This document shows, piece after piece, positions 2,651 to 55,503 of a stretch of 64,000 nt of DNA; within the stretch, counting starts at the first letter, position 1; each line of letters opens with the position of its first letter. The stretch spans positions 24,886 through 88,885 of the forward strand of contig MWDO01000001.1 in assembly GCA_002070605.1 (NCBI GenBank). Direction: 5' to 3'. A program made the translations under genes and the position numbers. The notes under the pieces are model-generated. The model saw only the letters and a program-made list of their open reading frames with translations. It was not told the DNA's origin and made no database searches. This DNA comes from Spirochaetes bacterium ADurb.Bin133. GTDB taxonomy: Bacteria; Spirochaetota; GWE2-31-10; MWDO01.

Positions 2651-3510
2651 TCATGCTTTTACCTTCTTTTTCATCAAGTATTCAACCACGCCTATATCTA
2701 AATCTTTTTCTGATACAGTGTTAAGTTTAATTTTTTTCCTTGGAATATCCAAATTATATCTCCACAGTTTTTGATCCAACAATTCAAAATAATTACTAAA
2801 AAGTTGAATCCAATCGCTATGTCGAAGCCTGTTTGTATAACTTACACCTTCTTTAACTAAATATTTTTCCCAAACTTTATTTGAATATTTATAAAATAAA
2901 AATGGAGAATCGAAATTATAATGATCTCTCAAATCAATACGGCTAAAAACCAGACCTCCTTCATTCAAACAATTATACACCCCCAATATTGTCCCTTCAT
3001 AATTTTTAATATGTTCAAACACGCTTATACTTATAACTAAATCCGCCTTACAATTTAAATTTATATTACTTATATCGCCGGAAATATACTCAATTTTATC
3101 TTCTAAAAAATTTAGCCGGTCGTCTGTCTGTCTGTCTGTAAGCAAAATATTTTATCTTTATTTTTTTCTCTAAAATATGATAATTCTTCTTGAAAAAATA
3201 ATTTCTGTTTTTTATTTGTATAATTTCGCGGAAATTTATCTAATAGAATTACTTTTCTAGCTCCTGCTTGTAAAAAATTATATGCGTTTATATAAGAGTT
3301 TCCAGATCCCAATTCCATTACTACTTTATCTTTAATATCAAAATTTTGCCTACTCAAAAGTTCTTTTATATTGGGAAAGTAACTATCAATTATTTGACAA
3401 TTACTTGTATACCTTTTCCAAAAAAACAATCGATTTAATCTCATTTTTACATATAAAAATCTTATGATAAAATCAAATTTGATCAATATTAAATTAATTA
3501 ATTTTTTCAT
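2651..3510 (-). pseudogene. Class I SAM-dependent methyltransferase split into two ORFs (3112..3510 N-terminal, 2651..3145 C-terminal) at a tetranucleotide repeat; candidate phase-variable gene, currently out of frame
   Basis: The N-terminal ORF carries motif I (MELGSGNSY...ARKVILLD). The C-terminal ORF carries the post-I methyltransferase core (DLVISISVFEHI...LNEGGLVF). Both ORFs read through the same (CAGA)4 tract, translated as QTDRQT. Adding one repeat unit fuses them in frame. Confidence 0.7.
3123..3139. repeat. (TCTG)4 tetranucleotide simple-sequence repeat at the methyltransferase frameshift point
   Basis: Read directly: cgTCTGTCTGTCTGTCTGta. The only tetranucleotide microsatellite I found in the window. 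Confidence 0.9.
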
Positions 3511-44742: not shown

Positions 44743-45258
44743 TTGAAGGAGTTTTTTATGACAAATAAAACAGTTAAAGCGGCGCTATGTATTTCCATAT
44801 TTAGCTTGGTTTTTCTTATATCAAGTTGCGCCGTTCCTTTTGATATTACAAGCTCGAAAATAACGATCGAACTGCAAAACACTTGCGGATTATATGTCGA
44901 AAGCGAAATAAAAATACCGGAAGAGGTATTAAAGAGCAATGTTTCATTTTCCGAGATTGTGTTGTATTATACCGTAAGGAAAAACGGCTCGTTTGTTGCC
45001 AAAGTAGAGATGTATGCGTCTACAGATCAAAAGGCGGATAATTTGAAAGGCGGTAACGATGAGAAACTGATAGGCGTAGAACTGGGTTTGTCAGAAAATA
45101 AAAAAAGCGGGGAGGTCGTTTCAAATAAAATAAGAGAAGTCTTAAATAGTAAATTGCCAAAATTTGTCGTCGGCGGAGAAAACCTGTCGGCAAACCCCTT
45201 GTCTTCAATATTTATTGATTTGGAAGTAAGATTCGTCGGAACTTATTCCGCTTTCTAA
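44743..45258 (+). CDS. Hypothetical lipoprotein
   Basis: Signal peptide plus lipobox (LISSCA). Confidence 0.45.
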   Translation: MKEFFMTNKTVKAALCISIFSLVFLISSCAVPFDITSSKITIELQNTCGLYVESEIKIPEEVLKSNVSFSEIVLYYTVRKNGSFVAKVEMYASTDQKADNLKGGNDEKLIGVELGLSENKKSGEVVSNKIREVLNSKLPKFVVGGENLSANPLSSIFIDLEVRFVGTYSAF

Positions 45259-45301
45259 CGGAGCGGAATAATAAAGAAAAAAAGTCCAAGATTTAACTTT
45301 A

Positions 45302-45385
45302 TATGATCTGGAATTTGACGCATCGTTTGATATGAATGTTTATATTTCATTTTTGAATGGGAAAACGGTAAAAGCTATGAGATAA
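45302..45385 (+). pseudogene. Silent internal fragment (about 27 codons) of the 330-aa lipoprotein family
   Basis: YDLEFDASFDMNVYISFLNGKTVKAMR*. Compare IYDMEYDASFDTNPYIVLLNGKAIKL in 48259..49251 and YDASFDLNPYLLINNKLLKF in 51677..52663. Confidence 0.6.
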
Positions 45386-45411
45386 TAAATTAAATTTTTA
45401 CGGAGGTTATA

Positions 45412-45798
45412 ATGAATAAGATATACTTTATTCTTATTATTTGTTTAGTTTGCGGTTTAATCGGTTGTCCCTATATATTCGACGACTCTCTTGTCGGAGC
45501 ATGGGGCATTGAAGTTAGCGGCAATGTTTACAAAAGCGTTGAGTTTACCGTCGACGGCAATATGTCGCTTTACGACGTTACGTATTACTCTTCGGATAAT
45601 ACTACGGACTACGGTTTTCCCTTTGCGAATACCGGATATTCGACTTTGAGCGCGACTTTAAAATGCTTTTCTTACTGCGGCAAACTCGATTATTGGAGCG
45701 AAAATAACTATTCAGGGAAAATCACGGTCAATTATTTTATTTCAGGGGGGAGATTATCTATTCCGGAAATGTCGTTGAACGATCTTGTTAAAATGTGA
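45412..45798 (+). CDS. Small hypothetical lipoprotein
   Basis: Signal peptide plus lipobox (LIGCPY). Confidence 0.45.
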   Translation: MNKIYFILIICLVCGLIGCPYIFDDSLVGAWGIEVSGNVYKSVEFTVDGNMSLYDVTYYSSDNTTDYGFPFANTGYSTLSATLKCFSYCGKLDYWSENNYSGKITVNYFISGGRLSIPEMSLNDLVKM

Positions 45799-45817
45799 GA
45801 GAACTCAACGCGGCGCG

Positions 45818-45878
45818 CATGCGGTTATATAAGTTTTGGGCTCGAATATCGCATAGGGAGTATAAAATAAGTTGTCGG
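45818..45878 (+). pseudogene. Silent 3' fragment of the OMP-like partner gene family
   Basis: It encodes ...ACGYISFGLEYRIGSIK*. Compare the C-termini of 49248..49955 (GVEYRVGSIK*) and 52683..53324 (YGYISFGIEYRIGYCLDK*). Confidence 0.65.
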
Positions 45879-45991
45879 CAATATCGCGAAAATTTTTAAA
45901 TTGAAAATACAAGATTTTTGTTGTATATTATCCCAGCGACAAAGAATGACCGCCATCCTTTGTAATCATAAAACAATAAAGCGGAGATTTT

Positions 45992-46774
45992 ATGAATTAT
46001 TGGACTAAATTAAGTATAGATTTTGCGAATCAACGAAATTACTTAGATGAACTTTTTCAAATTTATCCAACTATTCCAGAAGGCATTCGAGATATAGATA
46101 AAGAAATTTGGAATAAAATTGAAAAGAGTTTTGAGAAAAAAGACAATATCGAGTTAATAAAAATGTTACTGGGCTTAAATTTATTTCCAATTAAAGATTC
46201 TTATGTTGCATATCTTAAAAGAGACCTGTCTTCAATAGAAAGAAATCCAAATACTATTAATAGACTTTGTGGAAGATTATACGAGATGGGTTTAGATAAA
46301 ATTTATGAAAAATGTTCAGAACCAAAGGAAACAAATCGTCAAATTGGACCATTATTTAAAAGATGGTTAAAAAAAGGTTCTTTAGGAATTGCCCCGGTAA
46401 ATATTTTTGATTTTGAAAAATCTAAAAACAATGCTATACTCGACGCTAGCGATGCAGAAATGCAATCTTGGTGTAAAAAAAACCTTAATTATAACAGAGA
46501 TAAAGGGTTAGATTTTGTTGGAAGATTTAATGGAAAGTATATAATTGGCGAAGCAAAATTTTTAACAGATTTTGGCGGACATCAAAATACGCAGTTTGCA
46601 GATGCAATAAGTACAATAAAATCTAAAAATGTTAAAGCAATAAAAATTGCTATTCTCGATGGAGTTTTATATATCAAGGGTGGTAATAAAATGTATCGAG
46701 ATGTAACAGAGACTTACAAAGAAGAAAACATATTAAGCGCCTTACTTTTAAGGGATTTCATATACTCAATATAA
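45992..46774 (+). CDS. Putative type II restriction endonuclease (cognate of the downstream methyltransferase)
   Basis: PD-(D/E)xK-like DFVGRFNGKYIIGEAKF. Its stop is 6 nt before the methyltransferase start. AT-rich and CpG-poor compared with the backbone. Confidence 0.45.
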   Translation: MNYWTKLSIDFANQRNYLDELFQIYPTIPEGIRDIDKEIWNKIEKSFEKKDNIELIKMLLGLNLFPIKDSYVAYLKRDLSSIERNPNTINRLCGRLYEMGLDKIYEKCSEPKETNRQIGPLFKRWLKKGSLGIAPVNIFDFEKSKNNAILDASDAEMQSWCKKNLNYNRDKGLDFVGRFNGKYIIGEAKFLTDFGGHQNTQFADAISTIKSKNVKAIKIAILDGVLYIKGGNKMYRDVTETYKEENILSALLLRDFIYSI

Positions 46775-46786
46775 GGAGATTTGATT

Positions 46787-47971
46787 ATGGAACTTAATTA
46801 TAAGGGTAAAAAAGATATAAATGATATAGTTAATAATACTCCGCCTGCCTTTTTAGAAGGAATTTGGAATGAATCGTCAAACAAATTAATAAAAGGAAAT
46901 AATTTACACACATTAAAAGCATTAATAACTAATTATAACTTAAAAGGAAAAATTGACTTAATTTATATTGACCCGCCATTTTCGACAAATACCGTATTTA
47001 CAATTGGAGAAGAAAGAGTAAGTACTATCAGTTCAAAAAAAGATGATGAAATTGCATATTCTGATAATTTAAAGGGAAACGAATTCCTCGAGTTTTTACG
47101 GGAACGATTAATATTAGCAAGAGAATTGATGTCAGACAAATCTTCTATATATTTACATATTGATTATAAAATCGGTCATTATGTTAAAATTATTATGGAT
47201 GAGATATTTGGAGTTGAAAATTTTAGAAATGATATTACAAGAATAAAATGTAATCCTAAAAATTTTGACCGTAAAGCTTATGGGAATATAAAAGATTTAA
47301 TTTTATTTTATTCAAAAACAAAAGATTTGATTTGGAATGACCCAAAAACAATTTTTACTGAAGATGATATTAATAGATTATTCAAGAAAGTTGATGAAAA
47401 TGGACGTCGTTATACTACAATTCCTTTACATGCGCCAGGCGAAACAAAAAATGGCGTTACATCGCAAGAATTTAGAGGTATTAAACCTCCAGCAGGCAGG
47501 CATTGGAGATGTGATCCTAAAATTTTAGAAGAACTTGATTTACAAGGATTAATTGAATGGTCAAGTAACGGCGTTCCTAGAAAAAAAATATTTGCAGATG
47601 AGCAAGATGGTAAAAAACTTCAAGATATATGGGATTTTAAAGATTATCAATATCCTGTTTATCCGACTGAAAAGAATTTAGATTTATTAAAAACTATTAT
47701 TTCAGCATCTTCTAATGAAAAAAGTATTGTTATGGATTTTTTTTGCGGCTCCGGTACTACATTAATTGCAAGCCAAGAACTTGGTCGTACTTGGATTGGT
47801 ATTGATCAATCAGAAAAGGCAATTGAAGTTACTAAAAAAAAGATTAATGCAATTCCTAATAGTCTTTTTTCATCAGTTAATTATGATTATTTATATGAAA
47901 AAAATATTGAGGAATATACGCCCACGCCTTCCTTGGCTTCGGCTTTAAATATCGCTAGGGTTGGAAATTAA
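46787..47971 (+). CDS. Type II N4/N6 DNA methyltransferase (beta-class)
   Basis: Motif IV DLIYIDPPFSTN lies near the N-terminus and motif I FFCGSGTT near the C-terminus. Confidence 0.8.
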   Translation: MELNYKGKKDINDIVNNTPPAFLEGIWNESSNKLIKGNNLHTLKALITNYNLKGKIDLIYIDPPFSTNTVFTIGEERVSTISSKKDDEIAYSDNLKGNEFLEFLRERLILARELMSDKSSIYLHIDYKIGHYVKIIMDEIFGVENFRNDITRIKCNPKNFDRKAYGNIKDLILFYSKTKDLIWNDPKTIFTEDDINRLFKKVDENGRRYTTIPLHAPGETKNGVTSQEFRGIKPPAGRHWRCDPKILEELDLQGLIEWSSNGVPRKKIFADEQDGKKLQDIWDFKDYQYPVYPTEKNLDLLKTIISASSNEKSIVMDFFCGSGTTLIASQELGRTWIGIDQSEKAIEVTKKKINAIPNSLFSSVNYDYLYEKNIEEYTPTPSLASALNIARVGN

Positions 47972-47984
47972 GAATTGCGCGATA

Positions 47985-48080
47985 CAACCGACGTCTATTC
48001 AATAATGAAACCCGCATGCGGTTATATAAGTTTTGGGATCGAATATCGCATAGGGTATTGTCCGGATAAGTAAGAGATAA
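47985..48080 (+). pseudogene. Silent 3' fragment (about 32 codons) of the OMP-like gene family
   Basis: It encodes ...TTDVYSIMKPACGYISFGIEYRIGYCPDK*, nearly identical to the C-terminus of 52683..53324 (KYTTDVYSIMRPAYGYISFGIEYRIGYCLDK*). Confidence 0.7.
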
Positions 48081-48258
48081 AATTGTAAGATTGTTTAATA
48101 AATGATAGGATTGTTTAATAAACAAGTAAAAATTATTTGAAATTATGCGATATTATAGATTGCGCTTCGGATATGTTTATCGAGAGAGCGAAAGAACTTA
48201 AAAATGCAACTCTCCGTTTCAAAAAAGCGGGGACTTCTTTTTTATTTAAGGAAAAGTT

Positions 48259-49251
48259 ATGAAAATAAAACTTTTTTTGCCTGCGATATTAATTTTTGTA
48301 TTGTGTTGCTGTTCCTGTTCCAACGAAATTGATCCGAATTATTTACCGTCGTTTGACGGCATAGAGGTAGATGAAAATACTATTTTCTTATCTAACATAA
48401 AAGACGATAAAAAACATATCATATATGCGGTTGATACGAGCAATGATAAAATATTGTATAAATACGAATTTAAAAATTTGATAATTTACGACATGGAATA
48501 CGACGCGTCGTTTGATACGAATCCTTATATTGTATTGCTCAATGGAAAAGCGATAAAATTAAATACAAAAACAGGGTTATGCGAGAAGTTTAGTATTAAT
48601 TTTACTCCCGAGCGCGTTGAAGTTGTTGGCGACAAACTCTGGATAACTCCAACAGGCGTTGGATTTGAAGGATCGCCTAAAGAATACTATATTTATGACT
48701 CTAAAACAAATAATACTGAATATATTACATTACCGGAAGGTTTGTTTCGTGGCGATTGGACATTTATTAATAACTGTTACTACTTAGCTCTTTCAATTAG
48801 TTCTTATGGCGACATATTATATAATTTAACTGAAAAAAAGAATATAGGCGGGAATTTTTTTAATAGAAATCATTCATTTTATAAATTGTCTGGAAATTAT
48901 TTGCAAGATTCATTTATCTCATCAGCGTCTGATTATGAAGAGGTATATTATATAAATTCTTTTGAACCTTTTAATTATAAATCTCTTTATAAAAGCGATA
49001 AATATTTGTTGTTAATTAATGTTTTTGAAAAAAATAATTATTCATATTTTGTTGAAATAGGAAATAATTATTTAAATATTACAAAAAGGGATATAATAAA
49101 CAACTATATAGAACTAAAGAATATACAAATATATGATTCTTGGAATTATCTTACCTATTGCAAAAACGGTTATATCTGGTGCGTAAGCGAAGATAACGAC
49201 GGGGCGTATAAGGTCGATATGGACGATTTGAGCTATGAGATAATAAATTGA
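48259..49251 (+). CDS. Variable surface lipoprotein, cassette copy 1
   Basis: The lipoprotein signal MKIKLFLPAILIFVLCCCSCSNE is identical to copy 2. The C-terminus YCKNGYIWCVSEDNDGAYKVDMDDLSYEIIN is also identical. The middle is divergent. About 45 bp of the 5' UTR match copy 2. Confidence 0.6.
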   Translation: MKIKLFLPAILIFVLCCCSCSNEIDPNYLPSFDGIEVDENTIFLSNIKDDKKHIIYAVDTSNDKILYKYEFKNLIIYDMEYDASFDTNPYIVLLNGKAIKLNTKTGLCEKFSINFTPERVEVVGDKLWITPTGVGFEGSPKEYYIYDSKTNNTEYITLPEGLFRGDWTFINNCYYLALSISSYGDILYNLTEKKNIGGNFFNRNHSFYKLSGNYLQDSFISSASDYEEVYYINSFEPFNYKSLYKSDKYLLLINVFEKNNYSYFVEIGNNYLNITKRDIINNYIELKNIQIYDSWNYLTYCKNGYIWCVSEDNDGAYKVDMDDLSYEIIN

Positions 49252-49955
49252 AAAAAACAATGTTTTTTTTTATTACATTTTTAATTTTTATTAATAACAA
49301 TAAAATAACTTCAAGCGGTATTACTCAGAATTTTAGCTTCGCTTCAGGGTTGTCTCTTAATTCTTTATTGATTCTTGAACCAAGTTATCAGGAGCCAAAA
49401 TATATAGAATATCATGTTTTGGTACATTTAACGATAAAATTTGACTATTTGTTTTTTAAAGAAGTCAGGAATAATTATAAAATCGGATTCGGTCTGGCGC
49501 TTGGAGACTCAATTAATGTATCGGCTATGGGGGGATACGGAGGAATCGGAACATATATAACTTCGGCGATTTTACTAAGCGGGCTGCTACCGGGATTTAT
49601 TTATACATTTTTTCAACAACGTTGTTTTATGAATAGACTATTTCAGAAAATTACATTTGTAAATTTGATAGGCAGCGATTATGAAAATAAATATGCTCTA
49701 ATTGAAGTTGGTCTTAATGCGGAATTTGTTTTCTTTTTTTATGAATTTCAGTTTTTTATCTCCCCCAATTTTTTTATAGGATTTTTGAAATATACGACTT
49801 CGTGGATGTTTTTAAACGTTAAAGGCGAAATTATAAATATCAGTCATATTATCGGCGGTTTTTTTGAGTTTGGTATAAATGTAACGCCTTATAGAAATTA
49901 TGACAATTTTTTTATAAATATTGGCGTTGAATATCGCGTAGGGAGTATAAAATAA
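49248..49955 (+). CDS. Cassette partner, copy 1: secreted beta-rich protein, possibly a small OMP
   Basis: Signal peptide. Translationally coupled to the upstream gene. Paralogous to 52683..53324 (shared motifs FSFA, YALIEVGL and EYRVG). Confidence 0.5.
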   Translation: MKKTMFFFITFLIFINNNKITSSGITQNFSFASGLSLNSLLILEPSYQEPKYIEYHVLVHLTIKFDYLFFKEVRNNYKIGFGLALGDSINVSAMGGYGGIGTYITSAILLSGLLPGFIYTFFQQRCFMNRLFQKITFVNLIGSDYENKYALIEVGLNAEFVFFFYEFQFFISPNFFIGFLKYTTSWMFLNVKGEIINISHIIGGFFEFGINVTPYRNYDNFFINIGVEYRVGSIK

Positions 49956-50052
49956 GAGATAGAAATTATAGATATTATAGATTATAAATAAAAACTATTG
50001 ACAAAATTAAATTTTTATTATATAATTTGATTAAATTATTAGGAGGTAAATT

Positions 50053-51618
50053 ATGATTCAAAAAGTGTCAGTAGTCTTTGCTCTTTTGCTATTATTGGGA
50101 TGTAGCAACCCCGCTTTGCTGGTTGACGTAAAAAATGATAGCGCCGTTGGTATATTAAAAATGAGGAATATACCGAAAAGGTCGGAAGTTATAAAAGATG
50201 AAAAAAATGTCGTAAGCGACAGGAAAGCGGTTTTAACCGGAGCGGATCTCTATCTTAATTCGAAATTTGTCAGATCTATAGTTCCCGCGTCGAGATTTCC
50301 CGGGATTACAAGAGGGAACGACGTTACTGAAGAGGGCGGAGAGTCTCTTGAGTATGTTGACGACGTTATGATAGACTCGTTTGTCGAGGAGATTTTTACT
50401 AAAGCGACCGATGAAGAAAAAGAGTATTTTATGGAAAATATCGACGAAATCTCGTTGGAATTTAATATAGTTGTCAAATACGACTCGACGGACGACGCTT
50501 CGGATGATATGTTTATCGAGGGAGCGAAAGAGCTTAACGCGGCTCAGGACGAGTTGTACAACAGTTTGCAGTTAAACGAGGTTGCGATTAAAGAAGAAAC
50601 GAACAGAAGCGGCTATGGCGCGACTCTGAATCCTCAAAAATACAGAGCGCTTAACAAACATAACAGATACAGAAATTCAAACGAAAGAGTCGTAAAAGCG
50701 TGGGAACTGGCAAATTATTTTTTAATGAACGGCGATATTGAAGAAGTTGAAAATATAGCTGAGATGTTTGGAGTAGATATAGATATGGATAAATTAAAAG
50801 CTCTAAACATACAGAGGAGCAAAAGTAGAAGCGGAACTCCGTGGTTCGCGTATAAAAGCGAATTACCCGGAGCTGTTGAATGGTTTAAGAAATATGGGCA
50901 AAATGGCGACATAGTATCAAGGTGCTTAGAGTGGGCATGTATATATGGATGGTTTGATCATACTGGAATGTTTAGTAGAGATAGATTTTACAATGTGAGA
51001 GATAGCAACCGACTTTCAACTGCTTCCAGATGTATTCTCGCTTCATATCCTACGATGGCATACCCAATACAGGAGGATAGAAAAGGCGAGAGAGCTGAAT
51101 ACGCCTCTTACGAACCGCTTGCTAATTTTACCGACGCTTACAGGATTACCGTAAACAGAGCGAGCAAAGATAAAGGGCAAAAAGCGCTTGATAAAGCTGA
51201 GTCTCATTTTTACGGGGACGGAAGTAAGCGGGATTATCATAAATGGTGCGACGGAACATATACGTACTGGATAGGGTGGTATAGTTTTACGGGCTATTAC
51301 AATTGCGTATCTGAAACGTTGCGAACCACCGATAGGTCAAATAAAGACCCTCAAAATGTAAATTACTGTAGTTATATAGCGTGGTATGGCTATAAATACG
51401 GAGCGGATATAGACCTCGACTCGGACAATTATTCAAGAAAAAGTACCGGTAATATGAAAGTTCCGGACGATATTGTTAACTCGAAAAATGATCAATACGC
51501 TGACTGTTGGGTGTGGGTAAAGAAAAACGGCGCATGCGGAGAGTATACCGCGTTGAGTTACGTAAGTAAGAAGGTATATAGCGCTAAGACTATATCTGTT
51601 TTTTCGGCTACAAAGTGA
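50053..51618 (+). CDS. Large hypothetical lipoprotein with an acidic N-terminal half and a Cys/Trp/Tyr-rich C-terminal half
   Basis: Lipobox LLGCS. The C-terminal region reads WCDGTYTYWIGWYSFTGYYNC...CWVWVKKNGACGEY. No known domain. Confidence 0.5.
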   Translation: MIQKVSVVFALLLLLGCSNPALLVDVKNDSAVGILKMRNIPKRSEVIKDEKNVVSDRKAVLTGADLYLNSKFVRSIVPASRFPGITRGNDVTEEGGESLEYVDDVMIDSFVEEIFTKATDEEKEYFMENIDEISLEFNIVVKYDSTDDASDDMFIEGAKELNAAQDELYNSLQLNEVAIKEETNRSGYGATLNPQKYRALNKHNRYRNSNERVVKAWELANYFLMNGDIEEVENIAEMFGVDIDMDKLKALNIQRSKSRSGTPWFAYKSELPGAVEWFKKYGQNGDIVSRCLEWACIYGWFDHTGMFSRDRFYNVRDSNRLSTASRCILASYPTMAYPIQEDRKGERAEYASYEPLANFTDAYRITVNRASKDKGQKALDKAESHFYGDGSKRDYHKWCDGTYTYWIGWYSFTGYYNCVSETLRTTDRSNKDPQNVNYCSYIAWYGYKYGADIDLDSDNYSRKSTGNMKVPDDIVNSKNDQYADCWVWVKKNGACGEYTALSYVSKKVYSAKTISVFSATK

Positions 51619-51676
51619 TAAATGTAAGTCCTCGTTTCAAAAAAACGGGGACTTCTTTTTTATTTAAGGAAAAGTT

Positions 51677-52663
51677 ATGAAAATAAAACTTTTTTTGCCT
51701 GCGATATTAATTTTTGTATTGTGTTGTTGTTCCTGTTCCAATGAAGTCGATCCCGATTATCTGCCGAGTTTTGACGGGATTGAAGCTAACAAGGACAATA
51801 TATTTTTTTTGGATAGGGAAAGTAAATGCAATAAAATATATGTGATTAATACGAAAGAAAACAAGAAGATAAATACTTATGAGTTTAACAATATTTATAT
51901 TGACTATTTGGTATACGATGCATCGTTTGATTTAAACCCGTACTTATTGATAAACAATAAATTGTTAAAATTTGATGTTGAATTTGGTCGTCTTATTGAA
52001 ATAGGACTAGATTATACTCCCGACTATTTAGAAATAGTTGAAGATAAATTGTGGGTAATACCGATGAGCGTTGGATATAAAAATGTTCCTAAGAGATATT
52101 TAACATACGACGCATCGATAGACAAGACGGAATATATTATAATCCCGGAGGGGCTTTTTATAGGATCGTATTTTATCTTCAATGGTAATACATATTTGCC
52201 AATTGTATTTCAATCCGATGCGCCGAAGATTTATAATTTAACTACTAATAAAATCATTAGTAATTTATTTACTAATGATAAAAGTTATTATGATTATTAT
52301 TTAATAAAAAGTTATTTATTTTCTGCATATTATAATAACGATAATAAATTAGTTTACGATGTTTATTTTGTGAACTCTTTTGAGCCGACGTTTAATTATA
52401 ACTACCTTTTTACGACTGACGAAGAATATCTTTTTGGCGCAATATATGAGAACGAAAATTATCTTTATTATATGGATAGGGATTACATAATGCTTATGGA
52501 TAAAAAAGATAATTATACCGTTAAAAGTTTTAAAGAGTTAAACGGGGATTCAAGAAATTTTGTTACCTATTGTAGAAACGGCTATATTTGGCTTGTAAGC
52601 GACAATAACGACGGGGCGTATAAGGTCGATATGGACGATTTGAGCTATGAGATAATAAATTGA
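51677..52663 (+). CDS. Variable surface lipoprotein, cassette copy 2
   Basis: Same signal peptide and C-terminal 30 aa as 48259..49251, with a divergent middle. Confidence 0.6.
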   Translation: MKIKLFLPAILIFVLCCCSCSNEVDPDYLPSFDGIEANKDNIFFLDRESKCNKIYVINTKENKKINTYEFNNIYIDYLVYDASFDLNPYLLINNKLLKFDVEFGRLIEIGLDYTPDYLEIVEDKLWVIPMSVGYKNVPKRYLTYDASIDKTEYIIIPEGLFIGSYFIFNGNTYLPIVFQSDAPKIYNLTTNKIISNLFTNDKSYYDYYLIKSYLFSAYYNNDNKLVYDVYFVNSFEPTFNYNYLFTTDEEYLFGAIYENENYLYYMDRDYIMLMDKKDNYTVKSFKELNGDSRNFVTYCRNGYIWLVSDNNDGAYKVDMDDLSYEIIN

Positions 52664-52682
52664 AATATTTTAAGAGATTAAA

Positions 52683-53324
52683 ATGAATAAAAAAAAGGTC
52701 TTAACGTTTTTTGTATTGATATTTTTAATATCGACAAATCTCTTTTCAAATGACGCCGAAAATGTAGGCGTACGCCAAAATTTTAGTTTTGCCGCTTCAA
52801 GCGGGGTTTGCTTGATTCCTTTTGAGTTTGATACGCTCGATTTTTATGAATTTGGCTTTAAGTTTGATTATCAGTTTTTTAAGGAGATCGGCGGTTATGT
52901 AAAACTCGGATTTGGCTTATCCTTTGGAGATTCAATCAATATAGGCGGCTTTATGACTTTGCTGATATATAGATATTTTACTTTCAACTTTTTTAACGAG
53001 CTCTCTCAGAAAATATCGTTTAACGCTCTCGTCGGCAACGATTGGAATAATAAATACGCTCTTTTTGAGTTAGGCGCTGTTTTTTCGTTTACCGCTTTTT
53101 TTTCTTCGTATTATGAATATTATTATTTGACCCTGTTTGTTTCCCCGTATCTTTTTATAGGTTTTGTAAATATAAGTTCGTCAAGCCACATATTCGGAGG
53201 TTTTTTCGAATACTCTTTTGACGTAGGAAAATATACAACCGACGTCTATTCAATAATGAGACCCGCATACGGTTATATAAGTTTTGGGATCGAATATCGC
53301 ATAGGGTATTGCTTGGATAAATAG
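52683..53324 (+). CDS. Cassette partner, copy 2
   Basis: Paralog of 49248..49955. Its 3' end is the template-like sequence for the fragments at 45818 and 47985. Confidence 0.5.
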   Translation: MNKKKVLTFFVLIFLISTNLFSNDAENVGVRQNFSFAASSGVCLIPFEFDTLDFYEFGFKFDYQFFKEIGGYVKLGFGLSFGDSINIGGFMTLLIYRYFTFNFFNELSQKISFNALVGNDWNNKYALFELGAVFSFTAFFSSYYEYYYLTLFVSPYLFIGFVNISSSSHIFGGFFEYSFDVGKYTTDVYSIMRPAYGYISFGIEYRIGYCLDK

Positions 53325-53327
53325 AGG

Positions 53328-54794
53328 TTGAAAAATATACTTTTTGTTTTATTTTGTCCCCTATTGTTTTATTGTTGCTCTGTTCCCATCGATCAAACCG
53401 AGGAGGATGATTCGGATAGAATTAGCGTAGATTGGACTATGATGTTTTATCTCGGAGCGGATAACAATTTGGAGTACGATTTGTTAAGGAACGTCAAAGC
53501 TATTAAAGGGGCTTATCAAGGGGGATGCAACGTTATAATATTCATAGACAGAAGTGCCTTTTATTCTATAAATTCTACCATTTTTGGCGAAAATTTCTCC
53601 GGATGTAGAATTTATAGAGTCAAAAGAGATAATCGGATAGAACTGTTAGAAAAAGAAGATTATTTTTATGATACAACGCCGGATAGCGGGGGTTATAACT
53701 TTAATTCGGCGGATATCCTTGTTTTAAAGAAATTTATTGAATATTGCAAAAATAACTTTCCGGCTCGCTATTACTCTTTAATTATCGGTTCGCATGGCGG
53801 CGGAGCGAGAAGCGCTAACGGCAGTAGAAACATAGTATACGACGAGGCGTATGACGAGTGGATATATACAGGCCAATGGACAGACTATTTATCTAAAGAG
53901 TATTCTGTCGATATATTGGGTTTAGACGCCTGTTTTATGGGAAATATTGAGTTTTTATATCAAATAAGGAGAAATAACGGTAGATTTAGCGCCGATTATG
54001 TTATTGCGTCGCCTCCTACGGAATGAGGGTACGGATGGAATTATTCGGGTATATTTCAAAGGATTACAGAAAACGAGGCGGTTGTTGTAGAAAATAAAAT
54101 GAACGATATTACGGGAGAGAAAAGATCAATTTATCCGTCCAATTTATTGGCTCCGGAGGATTTAGGGAGGATAATTATTGAGGAGCAGTATGATTATACT
54201 TCTTTGGAAACCGACGATCAAGCTCTAGCTCTTTACAATACTGAAAAATGCGTAGACCTAAAATATTCTCTTGACGCTTTATTTGTAGCTTTAAAGGATA
54301 ACTTAGCGGATATTGAGATTATTCGAGGGAAAGGGGAAATTAATCAGGCGGACGCGCTTTTTTATTTTGATAGTTCGTCGGTAGACGAATGGATTGATTA
54401 TTGCTATTTTGATATTTACGATATATGTAAAAAAATAATTTTATCAAACAAATTTTCTCAATATATAAATAATATGGCGGCGGAAGTTCAGGAAAAAATA
54501 AACGAGGTTATATTATACTCCTTTTCCGGTAAATATTTTCAACGATTTCAGAATAATGTCAACGGTTTGTCGTTTTTTTTCCCTGATGGAAATGCTCTTT
54601 ACGAAGGAGATAAAGTTTACCGGTATCAAAGCTGGTATAACGCGATAGAGGACGAAGATTCTTATGGCAAACTCTCTTTTTGTTCTGATAACGCTTTGAT
54701 GGGGAACGGCGTCGTAGAAAATTATTTTGAAGTATTAGACTACTGGTTTGATAATCAAAACGAAAACGGCGGTTTTAACGGTTATGGATATTAA
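53328..54794 (+). pseudogene. Clostripain-like (C11) cysteine peptidase lipoprotein interrupted by a single in-frame TGA at 54024-54026
   Basis: His-Gly (GSHGGGAR) and Cys (LGLDACFMGN) catalytic motifs. ORFs 53328..54026 and 54099..54794 are in the same frame. The C11-conserved GYGWNY follows the TGA immediately (compare clostripain ASEETEPGIGWDY). Confidence 0.6.
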
Positions 54795-55503
54795 TTTTTT
54801 TTCTGCAAAAAGTTCAAGTTTTTTTAAAACCTTTTCCGCGATTCATATATTAGCGCTTATGTCGATAGCTATTTTATCAATAAGTTTACTATATATCTTA
54901 AAAAACAAGTCCGATAGAGATAAAAAGATTTTTAGACTAATATTGGGGTGTTTTGCCTTAATTCTTCAAATATCCTACGATATTTGGCTTATTGTAAACG
55001 AAAACTTTACTATAAAAGAATCTTTACCTTTAAATATATGTTCTGTATCATTAATTTTGGTATTTATTTTATTTTTAACAAAAAACAGAATAGTCTTTAG
55101 CGTTCAATACTTCTGGGGGATAATCGGGAGTTCTTATGCTTTAATTTTTCCGAATATTATACATAATTTCCCTCATTTTAGATTTGTTGAATATTTTCTT
55201 GCCCATGGAGTAATACTTTTTTCCGTTTTTTATTTTTTGTTTATAGAAAAATATACCATAACTATAAAAAGCGCCGTTGCGGCGTATATTTTTTCGGTTT
55301 TTTATCTGGGTATTGTTTTTGTTATAAATCTGATAATCGGGTCTAATTACTTGTTTTTGATGAAAAAACCGCAATTTGCTAGTTTTCTTGATTTATTTGG
55401 AGATTATTATAGATTTGGACTTTTATTAGTAATTTTGATTATGTTCATTGTTTTATACATTCCCTTTATATTACGGGGAATATATATGAGAAATAGAAAG
55501 TAG
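54784..55503 (+). CDS. Hypothetical polytopic membrane protein
   Basis: About seven hydrophobic helices. I chose the ATG at 54784, which overlaps the peptidase stop by 11 nt. The track's earlier start lies inside the upstream gene. Confidence 0.4.
   Translation: MDINFFSAKSSSFFKTFSAIHILALMSIAILSISLLYILKNKSDRDKKIFRLILGCFALILQISYDIWLIVNENFTIKESLPLNICSVSLILVFILFLTKNRIVFSVQYFWGIIGSSYALIFPNIIHNFPHFRFVEYFLAHGVILFSVFYFLFIEKYTITIKSAVAAYIFSVFYLGIVFVINLIIGSNYLFLMKKPQFASFLDLFGDYYRFGLLLVILIMFIVLYIPFILRGIYMRNRK

Follow-up and report, generated by a model that had tools for sequence, protein, structure and literature searches.

Positions 45200-54800 of a 64,000-nucleotide stretch of the genome of Spirochaetes bacterium ADurb.Bin133 (assembly GCA_002070605.1, contig MWDO01000001.1, positions 24,886 to 88,885; the whole stretch is hereafter called the window) hold an array of envelope-protein genes that lies between the oxaloacetate-decarboxylase beta gene (OADb) and lepA. 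Its main components are two pairs, A1-B1 (48259-49955) and A2-B2 (51677-53324), each made of a lipoprotein gene, A, and a gene for a predicted outer-membrane barrel, B. A 521-aa gene, X, stands between both pairs, and fragments of related genes lie upstream. A preliminary description of this DNA had likened the conserved ends, variable cores and silent partial copies to gene-conversion systems of antigenic variation; the architecture is real, but the reading as a vls/tprK/pilS-type system with silent donors fails. We consider it probable that tandem amplification and partial decay of a lineage-specific envelope operon produced this array, by birth-and-death evolution with occasional ectopic conversion. 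The evidence for this consists of the anatomy of the array, the predicted folds of its products, the synteny of its scars with intact genes in relatives, conversion tracts at the ends of the A genes, and the lack of segmental variation among assemblies.

Both pairs are complete, with 46% identity between the A1 and A2 proteins (E 7e-93) and 35% between the B1 and B2 proteins (E 3e-29), and tblastn searches with the cassette proteins detected two complete A genes in the window. Similarity between the two A genes is concentrated at their ends, where repeat finding also recovers a shared 5' and a shared 3' block. The signal peptide is identical over 21 residues and in 62 of 63 nucleotides (98%; 95% at third codon positions). 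The shared sequence extends into the 5' untranslated region (UTR), where 48200-48258, a hairpin and then a T-tract, matches 51618-51676; in a base-by-base alignment the 48223-48323 segment is about 98-99% identical between the two copies of this 5' tract. The hairpin in front of A2 (51626-51654) folds with -18 kcal/mol (z = -4.1), and an Rfam scan of the whole window returned a single tRNA, with no match to a known RNA element within the shared 5' tract. The cores (residues 41-290) are 36% identical in protein, 54% in DNA and 41% at third codon positions, a value that we read as near saturation. At the C-terminus the last 18 residues are identical. The preliminary description was thus accurate on the two full pairs, the identical signal peptide, the near-identical 5' UTR with its hairpin and the divergent middles, and slightly overstated the C-terminal identity: of the roughly 30 final residues that it took to be identical, the last 18 are, and about 27 of the last 31 match. 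The difference between signal-peptide and core DNA identity also rules out that these are ancient paralogues with uniform divergence along their length.

Part of the conservation at the ends of A is ordinary constraint. Family-wide conservation in all species extends to the mature N-terminus (CSNEIDPxYLPSFDGI) and to the C-terminus (YCKNGYIWxVSEDNDGAYKVNMDDLSYEII), but not to the 5' UTR or the hydrophobic signal peptide. As a sign of conversion we took paralogues of the same genome that are closer to each other at the ends than to their own orthologues, while their cores track orthology. This is what we find for A1 and A2. Both carry the MKIKLFLPAILIFVLCCCSCS signal peptide plus the hairpin, whereas the orthologues of A2 in L018 and L028 have the signal peptide MIRKIIIVFIIF... 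and lack the hairpin; their mature part is 88-90% identical to that of A2 and their signal-peptide DNA only 57%. The comparison of A2 with its orthologue Go_Ad gives 57% for the signal-peptide DNA and 90% for the DNA over residues 41-290, and L028 confirms the pattern. The orthologues of A1 likewise have different signal peptides without such a hairpin, that of its closest relatives (Go_Aa and Hc_A) being MYKKILIIFLF... At the other end, A1 and A2 both encode KVDMDD where the other family members inspected have Asn (KVNMDD or similar), and this shared Asp sits inside the perfect 61-nt tract. A1 and A2 thus have in common a 5' tract and a derived 3' substitution that no other sampled genome shows, which requires an event inside this genome; the two tracts (about 100 nt and 61 nt) are the footprints of such gene conversion. 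A lost or unsampled paralogue, or foreign DNA, would have donated the 5' tract. Uneven similarity is also seen among the relatives: identities for signal peptide and core are 97% and 57% between Go_Ac and Go_Ae, and 98% and only 72% between Go_Aa and Hc_A, whereas Go_Ab matches Go_Ac at 100% over residues 22-40 and at 56% in the core.

The fragments upstream of A1 (Table 1) are remnants of further units. The A3 remnant, composed of 45275-45373 and the last codons at 45373-45393 (about 45288-45399 by repeat finding), is recovered by tblastn with E 1.6e-6; its 3' end matches A1 and A2 as a repeat family, and in DNA it shares 89-95% identity with the third A gene of L011, which is intact. Orthologues of the next gene, p128, are 74-78% identical to it and lie directly 3' of an intact A in L023, L026 and L027, with the intact A genes of L023 and L026 occupying the position equivalent to A3. 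In L023, which reads (X fragment)-A-p128-B, an intact B begins right after p128; at this place the window has a B tail with 85-88% DNA identity to other B tails. Because relatives carry intact genes at those places, the A fragment, p128 and the B fragment together are the leftover of an A-p128-B unit. A second B tail (tblastn E 1.3e-12), whose DNA matches the 3' end of B2 (53233-53323) at 93%, is followed by a remnant of the B-to-X intergenic region. The alignment of this remnant with relatives stops just before the consensus TTGACA...TATAAT, so the -35/-10 promoter part has been deleted. Behind it and just upstream of A1 is a remnant of X that the preliminary description overlooked, with a piece (48170-48201) that has 30 of 32 nucleotides the same as 50506-50537 (chance expectation 0). 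The A fragment and the two B 3' ends reported in that description are therefore real homologues, and E-values and synteny rule out chance matches.

The vls/tprK/pilS-type silent cassettes that had been seen in these fragments are another matter. The fragments are 20-100 nt long and syntenic with intact genes of relatives, and they cover segments that are conserved family-wide (the YDASFDxNPY region, the last A codons and the ISFGIEYRIGY tail of B), so they would supply no diversity if used as donors. We interpret them as deletion scars, that is, as by-products of decay and not as donor cassettes. Relatives have scars of their own, e.g. an A tail upstream of B in L026. Their arrays are found at the same chromosomal site, with OADb on one side and C11-TMEM164-lepA on the other, but differ in composition. 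The Hc arrangement (L026 with L024) is OADb-(A tail)-B-X-A-p128-X'... and ...A-B-C11-TMEM-LepA, that of L011 is B-X-A-A-A-B, and in L028 a p171 homologue is directly followed by the 3' portion of B1, the equivalent of window 45260-49510 being absent.

Table 1. Positions of the genes, homology tracts and remnants of the array in the window, and of CTCTT repeats in X genes of relatives
Feature	Position	Strand	Description
A1	48259..49251	+	330-aa beta-propeller lipoprotein (predicted); open reading frame (ORF)
A2	51677..52663	+	328-aa beta-propeller lipoprotein (predicted); ORF
5' homology tract, copy 1	48200..48323	+	weakened terminator hairpin 48211-48233, ribosome-binding site (RBS), signal-peptide codons; aligned to 51618-51741
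5' homology tract, copy 2	51618..51741	+	terminator-like hairpin 51626-51654, T-tract, RBS, A2 signal-peptide codons
3' homology tract, copy 1	49193..49253	+	61 nt, 100% identical to 52605-52665
B1	49248..49955	+	231-235-aa outer-membrane barrel paralogue (predicted); ORF
B2	52683..53324	+	213 aa; signal peptide and 8-stranded beta-barrel (predicted)
X	50053..51618	+	521-aa lipoprotein (predicted), lipobox LLLGC, Cys/aromatic-rich conserved C-terminal half; ORF
X promoter	49998..50026	+	sigma-70-type consensus, 12/12 matches
C11 (clostripain-like) peptidase	53328..54794	+	lipoprotein-type signal; Pfam PF03415
TMEM164-like integral membrane protein	54748..55503	+	PF14808 on called gene; last operon gene
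A3 remnant	45275..45393	+	equivalent of A1 residues 68-100, out-of-frame fusion to the last 6 codons and stop (SYEIIN, stop)
p128	45412..45798	+	small lipoprotein gene after A in some units (A-p128-B); ORF
B tail, B1-like	45807..45871	+	B 3' end remnant (...ISFGLEYRIGSIK, stop); repeat families, tblastn
B tail, B2-like	47982..48072	+	B 3' end remnant; tblastn
B-to-X intergenic remnant	48073..48160	+	81-88% identity to X upstream regions in L011, L014, L015, L026
X remnant	48158..48208	+	equivalent of X residues 148-164; tblastn match
Tsp45I-like type II restriction enzyme and N6/N4 DNA methyltransferase	45992..47971	+	GC 29% island between the two B tails
(CTCTT)n in X, n=3	L011:907-921, L028:6028-6042		out of frame
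(CTCTT)n in X, n=5	L014:1307-1331 (identical to L016)		in frame, 527 aa
(CTCTT)n in X, n=8	L015:586-625 (strain 96.8% identical to L014)		in frame, 532 aa
(CTCTT)n in X, n=6	L029:160-189		out of frame
(CTCTT)n in X, n=5	L030:2501-2525, L031 (16-nt offset)		out of frame
(CTCTT)n in X, n=10	L026:3930-3979, L027		out of frame

The A-B pair, at first proposed to be a two-gene unit, is part of a larger operon, X-A-B-C11-TMEM164, which is kept in other Spirochaetota metagenome-assembled genomes (MAGs; L013, L014, L015) with products of about 520 (X), 330 (A), 220-275 (B), 490 (C11) and 240 (TMEM164-like) residues. X precedes A in these three as well as in L011 and L026, and a TMEM164-like gene follows C11 in the same three and in L024. 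A genes also occur in the layouts A-A-A-B (L011), A-A (L018), A-A then TMEM164-like (L020) and A-B-A-B (L012). The Cys/aromatic-rich lipoprotein that had been noticed between the two copies is X, and it proves to be a conserved member of this operon. The TTGACA-17-TATAAT block upstream of X is kept in relatives. For A1, no promoter was present on the + strand (47972-48258) among the sites listed, beyond which there are six weaker ones, and A1-B1 most likely has no promoter of its own. From the promoter upstream of X and the hairpin between X and A2 it follows that the transcription unit is most likely X, a leaky terminator, and A2-B2-C11-TMEM164; co-transcription through the hairpin is what we infer. 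In L013 (4359-6052; GCA_020047475.1) the operon X-A-B-C11-TMEM164 is found a few kb from genes for a ParA-like protein (CbiA), a PF01672 "Plasmid_parti_N" protein and the S subunit of a type I restriction-modification (R-M) system, and may be plasmid-borne.

The two A proteins and X are predicted to be bacterial lipoproteins from their lipoboxes. In the A family this is C20 followed by SNE, at least 90% conserved, with L/S-rich residues before it (e.g. LLSC in P0016); in X it is LLLGC followed by SN, with GCSN conserved. The AlphaFold2 model of A (pLDDT 88) is all-beta with about 28 strands, and its Foldseek matches are generic propellers (BamB, YVTN and WD40; 8-13% identity). A therefore resembles BamB in having a predicted all-beta propeller behind a lipoprotein signal peptide, a likeness of fold class that does not tie A to the Bam machinery. 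The model of B2 (pLDDT 76) has a helix at residues 3-19 and eight strands of 16-19 residues, and its top Foldseek matches are the transmembrane (TM) domain of OmpA, Ail, NspA, OmpX and PagL (E down to 9e-6). With a signal peptide and eight long antiparallel strands predicted, as in the OmpA TM domain, OmpX/Ail and PagL, B is predicted to be an outer-membrane 8-stranded barrel of the OmpA-TM/OmpX/Ail fold class, and the earlier suggestion of a partner gene resembling an outer-membrane protein is borne out by structure prediction. The identities of A and B to the named barrels and propellers (8-15%) and the TM-scores (0.4-0.6) denote a shared fold class only. An identical B2 protein is encoded on at least 20 contigs. 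Gene callers are split between 235 and 231 residues for B1, whose start is likely the ATG at 49260, with a T9 tract next to it. In X, D302, H303, C327 and C439 are among the invariant columns; none of 17 homologues has a Pfam domain, and a profile search of PDB yielded no relative. The best match, to an amidase, was rejected as noise (E 0.023, not credible).

No Pfam or NCBIfam family matched A1, A2, B1, B2, X, p128 or p171 (a small ORF described below), in agreement with the preliminary description, which had not recognised the family. The A family is small, with 16 proteins in a collection of 5.8 billion and, in a set of 1.84 billion clustered at 50% identity, 37 representatives, and all of its named, taxonomically assigned members are from Spirochaetota MAGs. 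X, A and B belong to new, narrow orphan families, and our literature search found no described spirochaete operon of clostripain, lipoprotein and outer-membrane protein genes. The C11 gene has Peptidase_C11 (PF03415) matches on both halves (E 1e-30 and 1e-16) and partial matches to the NCBIfam clostripain model TIGR02806 that are below its equivalog cut-off. A TGA at 54024-54026 interrupts it in this MAG only, leaving ORFs of 232 and 231 residues; site 54026 belongs to a TGG in eight other covering assemblies (L002-L007, L010), and intact C11 genes for products of 476-488 residues are present in L003, L005-L007 and L010. The stop may be genuine and inactivating, or it may be an assembly error. 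Because lipoprotein signals (X, A, p128, C11) are combined with the barrel B and an inner-membrane TMEM164-like protein, the operon is probably a surface or periplasmic module for proteolysis or substrate capture, an assignment that we make with low confidence. An outer-membrane or surface location and a physical pairing of A and B are likewise presumed. B may tentatively be seen as a membrane anchor or partner of the propeller lipoprotein, with surface proteolysis, substrate capture or envelope remodelling as presumed roles.

For a comparison at the population level we used nine other assemblies from other samples (L002-L010), four of which span all of A1-B2 and five of which span part of the array. 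Each is a consensus drawn from a nearly clonal population, with 1-5 differences per 4-20 kb; identity to the window is 99.97-100%, and at least four haplotypes of single-nucleotide polymorphisms (SNPs) are represented. Contig JAKJFQ010000002.1 of the Spirochaetota MAG GCA_022704815.1 is identical to the window. Segmental replacement within 45200-54800 was found in none of the nine consensus sequences, where the preliminary description had looked to strain comparison for segmental gene-conversion variants; the locus is essentially invariant across them. Nothing here resembles the hypervariation that vlsE or pilE expression sites typically show. Inside 45200-54800 the assemblies differ only by a frameshift in A2, by a SNP at 50700 in X, and at the C11 site 54026. 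Contig ends at 49213 and 51757 fall in the repeat tracts, as short-read assembly would give. The A2 frameshift (GG to A at 52147-52148, in L002, L003 and L005) splits the gene into ORFs of 161 and 155 residues and is linked to the SNP 55637 G>A in those three assemblies. Phase variation was considered for it and rejected: the site lies outside any repeat, and the linkage to SNP 55637 identifies the change as a mutation of one lineage. It marks a sub-lineage that lost A2, and its presence in one haplotype fits redundancy and relaxed constraint.

Selection on the A genes was estimated as the ratio of nonsynonymous to synonymous substitution rates (dN/dS; Nei-Gojobori) between orthologues. It is 0.15 for A2, 0.27 for A1 and 0.11 for the C-terminal half of A2 against Hc, similar to the 0.17-0.25 of the neighbouring C11 and TMEM164 genes, while the housekeeping genes LepA and OADb give 0.03-0.07. 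The genes evolve fast, yet purifying selection prevails overall. Measured against the Go_SlDig MAG, synonymous distance is uneven along the locus (B1 0.23, A2 0.39, C11 0.38-0.41, X 0.78, A1 0.95), which indicates either mis-paired paralogues or lateral or ectopic exchange.

Although X in the window has no such repeat, X genes of relatives contain (CTCTT)n tracts just before the lipobox, within the signal-peptide codons and 14-16 nt downstream of the ATG (Table 1). Of the relatives' alleles, two are in frame and five out of frame. In the latter the reading frame of the ATG closes after 15-27 codons and the rest stays open; gene callers use other starts there, with products of 491-545 residues. 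The same pentamer occurs in the leader-peptide coding region of Neisseria opa genes (PMC3745409). The tracts in X have 3-10 repeats in the same leader position, and the two systems are alike in having in-frame and out-of-frame alleles with the rest of the ORF intact. They differ in that X encodes a lipoprotein of about 520 residues and opa an 8-stranded Opa barrel, and in that the repeat-number differences of X seen so far are between strains and paralogues. The repeats in X indicate a pressure for variable expression of the family in at least some lineages, and the X-A-B family thus appears to behave as a contingency locus in these relatives. A metagenome-wide scan for CTCTT leaders gave 0 matches, the relevant contigs being probably outside that collection.

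In the array itself, the short-repeat scan found nothing above its thresholds except the T9 tract at 49263-49271 in B1, the length of which is constant in five covering assemblies, and searches for tandem and inverted repeats gave nothing hinting at invertible promoters or short-repeat switches. Similar T9 tracts are seen near the B starts in L014 and L015, and the AT-rich window has 17 tracts of at least 9 nt. Outside the array, a (GTCT)4/(AGAC)4 repeat at 3122-3137 (minus strand, 3112-3145) lies exactly at the point where a methyltransferase-like gene, beside a glycosyltransferase gene, is broken into overlapping ORFs of 132 (...QTDRQTTG) and 164 residues (MLTDRQTDD...); this gene may be phase-variable by slipped-strand mispairing and now out of frame.

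Several observations touch the neighbourhood and decay of the array. The R-M island between the two B tails contains a Tsp45I-like gene (Pfam match E 2.8e-125) and a called methyltransferase gene (PF01555). It is flanked by direct B-tail repeats (45807-45858 and 48004-48055, 88% identical) and has no counterpart at the equivalent site of L026 and L028; it could be an insertion, or the replacement of a unit via recombination between B tails. In L029 (1796-3606) X is followed by ORFs of 77 and 83 residues and then by an IS256-type transposase (Transposase_mut), and the region 1765-2322 has 66-73% DNA identity to A regions of L014 and L026. These short ORFs may be remnants of A, and insertion-sequence elements may be active in array decay. 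Between OADb and the array lies p171 (window 44743-45258), a small lipoprotein-like ORF that is conserved in L028, where it is a 166-aa gene, and in the other assemblies.

A paralogous surface-protein family with conversion-homogenised ends is an already known phenomenon. Helicobacter pylori babA/babB/babC are few full paralogues with near-identical 5' and 3' ends and divergent middles, subject to ectopic conversion, and some bab/hop members also switch on and off via short repeats in the 5' coding region. The A array resembles bab in its conversion-homogenised ends and in cores that track orthology. It differs in that the families are unrelated, that the unit is multi-gene (X-A-B) with tandem copies and one promoter lost, that no exchange is seen between assemblies, and that there is no sign of host association. 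In tprK of Treponema pallidum, numerous donor cassettes cover the variable regions. The silent cassettes of vlsE of Borrelia burgdorferi are likewise numerous and cover variable regions (PMC2780311). Like vlsE and tprK, the array concerns spirochaete surface proteins, here predicted ones, with conserved and variable regions and partial copies nearby; unlike theirs, its partial copies are 20-100-nt conserved remnants, syntenic with the intact genes of relatives, and silent cassettes covering variable regions, as in vls, tprK and pilS, are not what the partial copies represent.

A parallel in layout is offered by the vmp genes of Borrelia hermsii. There, about 60 silent vmp genes on linear plasmids serve a single telomeric expression site, with an upstream homology sequence (UHS) of 61-62 bp that reaches 26 bp into the coding region and an extragenic downstream homology sequence (DHS) of 214 bp (PMC6011951). 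The A genes are also predicted spirochaete lipoproteins, with a 5' element over the RBS and the start of the signal peptide and a 3' element; as with UHS and DHS, these 5' and 3' tracts flank both copies, one of which is behind a predicted consensus promoter and one without. The differences are that the array has two full chromosomal copies, that its 3' tract is intragenic, and that its partial copies hold conserved ends only. A large archive of complete silent genes, a feature of vmp, was not found within the 64-kb window with its two complete A genes.

The history that we favour, tandem amplification with decay and occasional conversion, would run as follows. The functional unit would have a strong promoter driving X, then a leaky hairpin terminator, A, B, the C11 lipoprotein peptidase and the TMEM164-like inner-membrane protein, and its X-A-B part (A-p128-B in some units) would have been duplicated repeatedly, with birth and death of copies. 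The most downstream unit, X-A2-B2-C11-TMEM164, would be intact and promoter-bearing, the C11 stop of this MAG aside. The next unit upstream, A1-B1, would have lost its X gene and promoter by two deletions, and two further units would have been reduced to scars (the A3 fragment, p128 and the two B tails), with the foreign R-M island between the tails. Ectopic conversion between the paralogues would have homogenised about 100 nt at the 5' ends and 61 nt at the 3' ends of A1 and A2, leaving their old, divergent cores untouched.

Several points weigh against this history. The promoterless A1-B1 is bracketed by the same 5' and 3' tracts as A2-B2 behind the X promoter, a layout of archival copy and expression site as with the UHS and DHS of B. 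hermsii. Sharing of 5' ends among divergent paralogues recurs elsewhere (97% vs 57% for Go_Ac/Go_Ae) and could reflect selection for exchangeability, not accident. The history does not account for the shared 5' tract, which is found in neither orthologue lineage; X is phase-variable by (CTCTT)n in relatives; and rare recombinant subpopulations would escape notice in consensus assemblies of a near-clonal lineage. The main rival is an active, low-frequency switch of the vmp (UHS/DHS) or bab type, in which A2-B2 would be the expression site, A1-B1 the archive and the tracts the crossover regions. The tracts bracket the divergent A cores exactly, the 5' tract covers the RBS and signal peptide as the UHS does in B. 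hermsii, A1 has no promoter among the listed sites and its X promoter has been deleted, conversion is evidenced at both ends of A, and the repeat in relatives' X is of the opa type. We nevertheless regard such a switch as unlikely. It would have a single possible archival copy, so that one non-reciprocal event would erase the diversity, and the fragments contain no variable-core sequence. No recombinant was seen in the four other assemblies that cover all of A1-B2 or the five that cover part. In other genomes the A copies follow one another head to tail with an RBS for each, and have the look of co-expressed, not silent, genes; dN/dS is 0.11-0.27; no recombinase, G-quadruplex motif or flanking inverted repeat of note was found in the array; and the relatives come, according to their record titles, from a sludge digester and a hydrocarbon metagenome, not from hosts with adaptive immunity.

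Lateral homologous replacement of the cores from related strains, with the family-wide conserved ends as arms, would account for the uneven synonymous distance to Go_SlDig (0.23 for B1 to 0.95 for A1) and for the pair Go_Aa/Hc_A, and the foreign R-M island indicates that the locus accepts incoming DNA. It may well contribute, but as the principal explanation it seems improbable to us: the 5' tract and the derived 3' substitution are found only in A1 and A2 of one genome, which needs a within-genome event, and uneven synonymous distance also arises from differential loss of paralogues. Hardly credible is that A1 and A2 are plain ancient paralogues whose ends were kept by purifying selection without any recombination. 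The family-wide conservation of the mature N-terminus and the C-terminus is in its favour, but the signal peptide and 5' UTR, which are not family-conserved, are 98% identical in A1 and A2 (95% at third positions), the A2 orthologue differs in the signal peptide and is 90% identical elsewhere, and the perfect 61-nt tract has zero synonymous differences. A bolder proposal is that X-A-B is a two-layer contingency system for surface variation in free-living spirochaetes of digesters or hydrocarbon consortia, combining the (CTCTT)n switch in X with UHS/DHS-like replacement of the core at A2, for which the promoterless A1 or incoming DNA could be the source. We give it little credence; if true, phages or grazers, not antibodies, would be the selective force.

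As an amplified and partly decayed operon array, the locus would be a clean, datable example of array growth, decay and end exchange, in which X, A and B form a conserved envelope operon with a C11 protease. Conserved ends, a variable core and partial copies can come from birth-and-death evolution plus ectopic conversion, and such a signature without population evidence is not to be taken as programmed antigenic variation. The most unexpected element is the CTCTT leader repeat in the X genes of relatives, which suggests that phase-variable surface lipoproteins exist in environmental spirochaetes.

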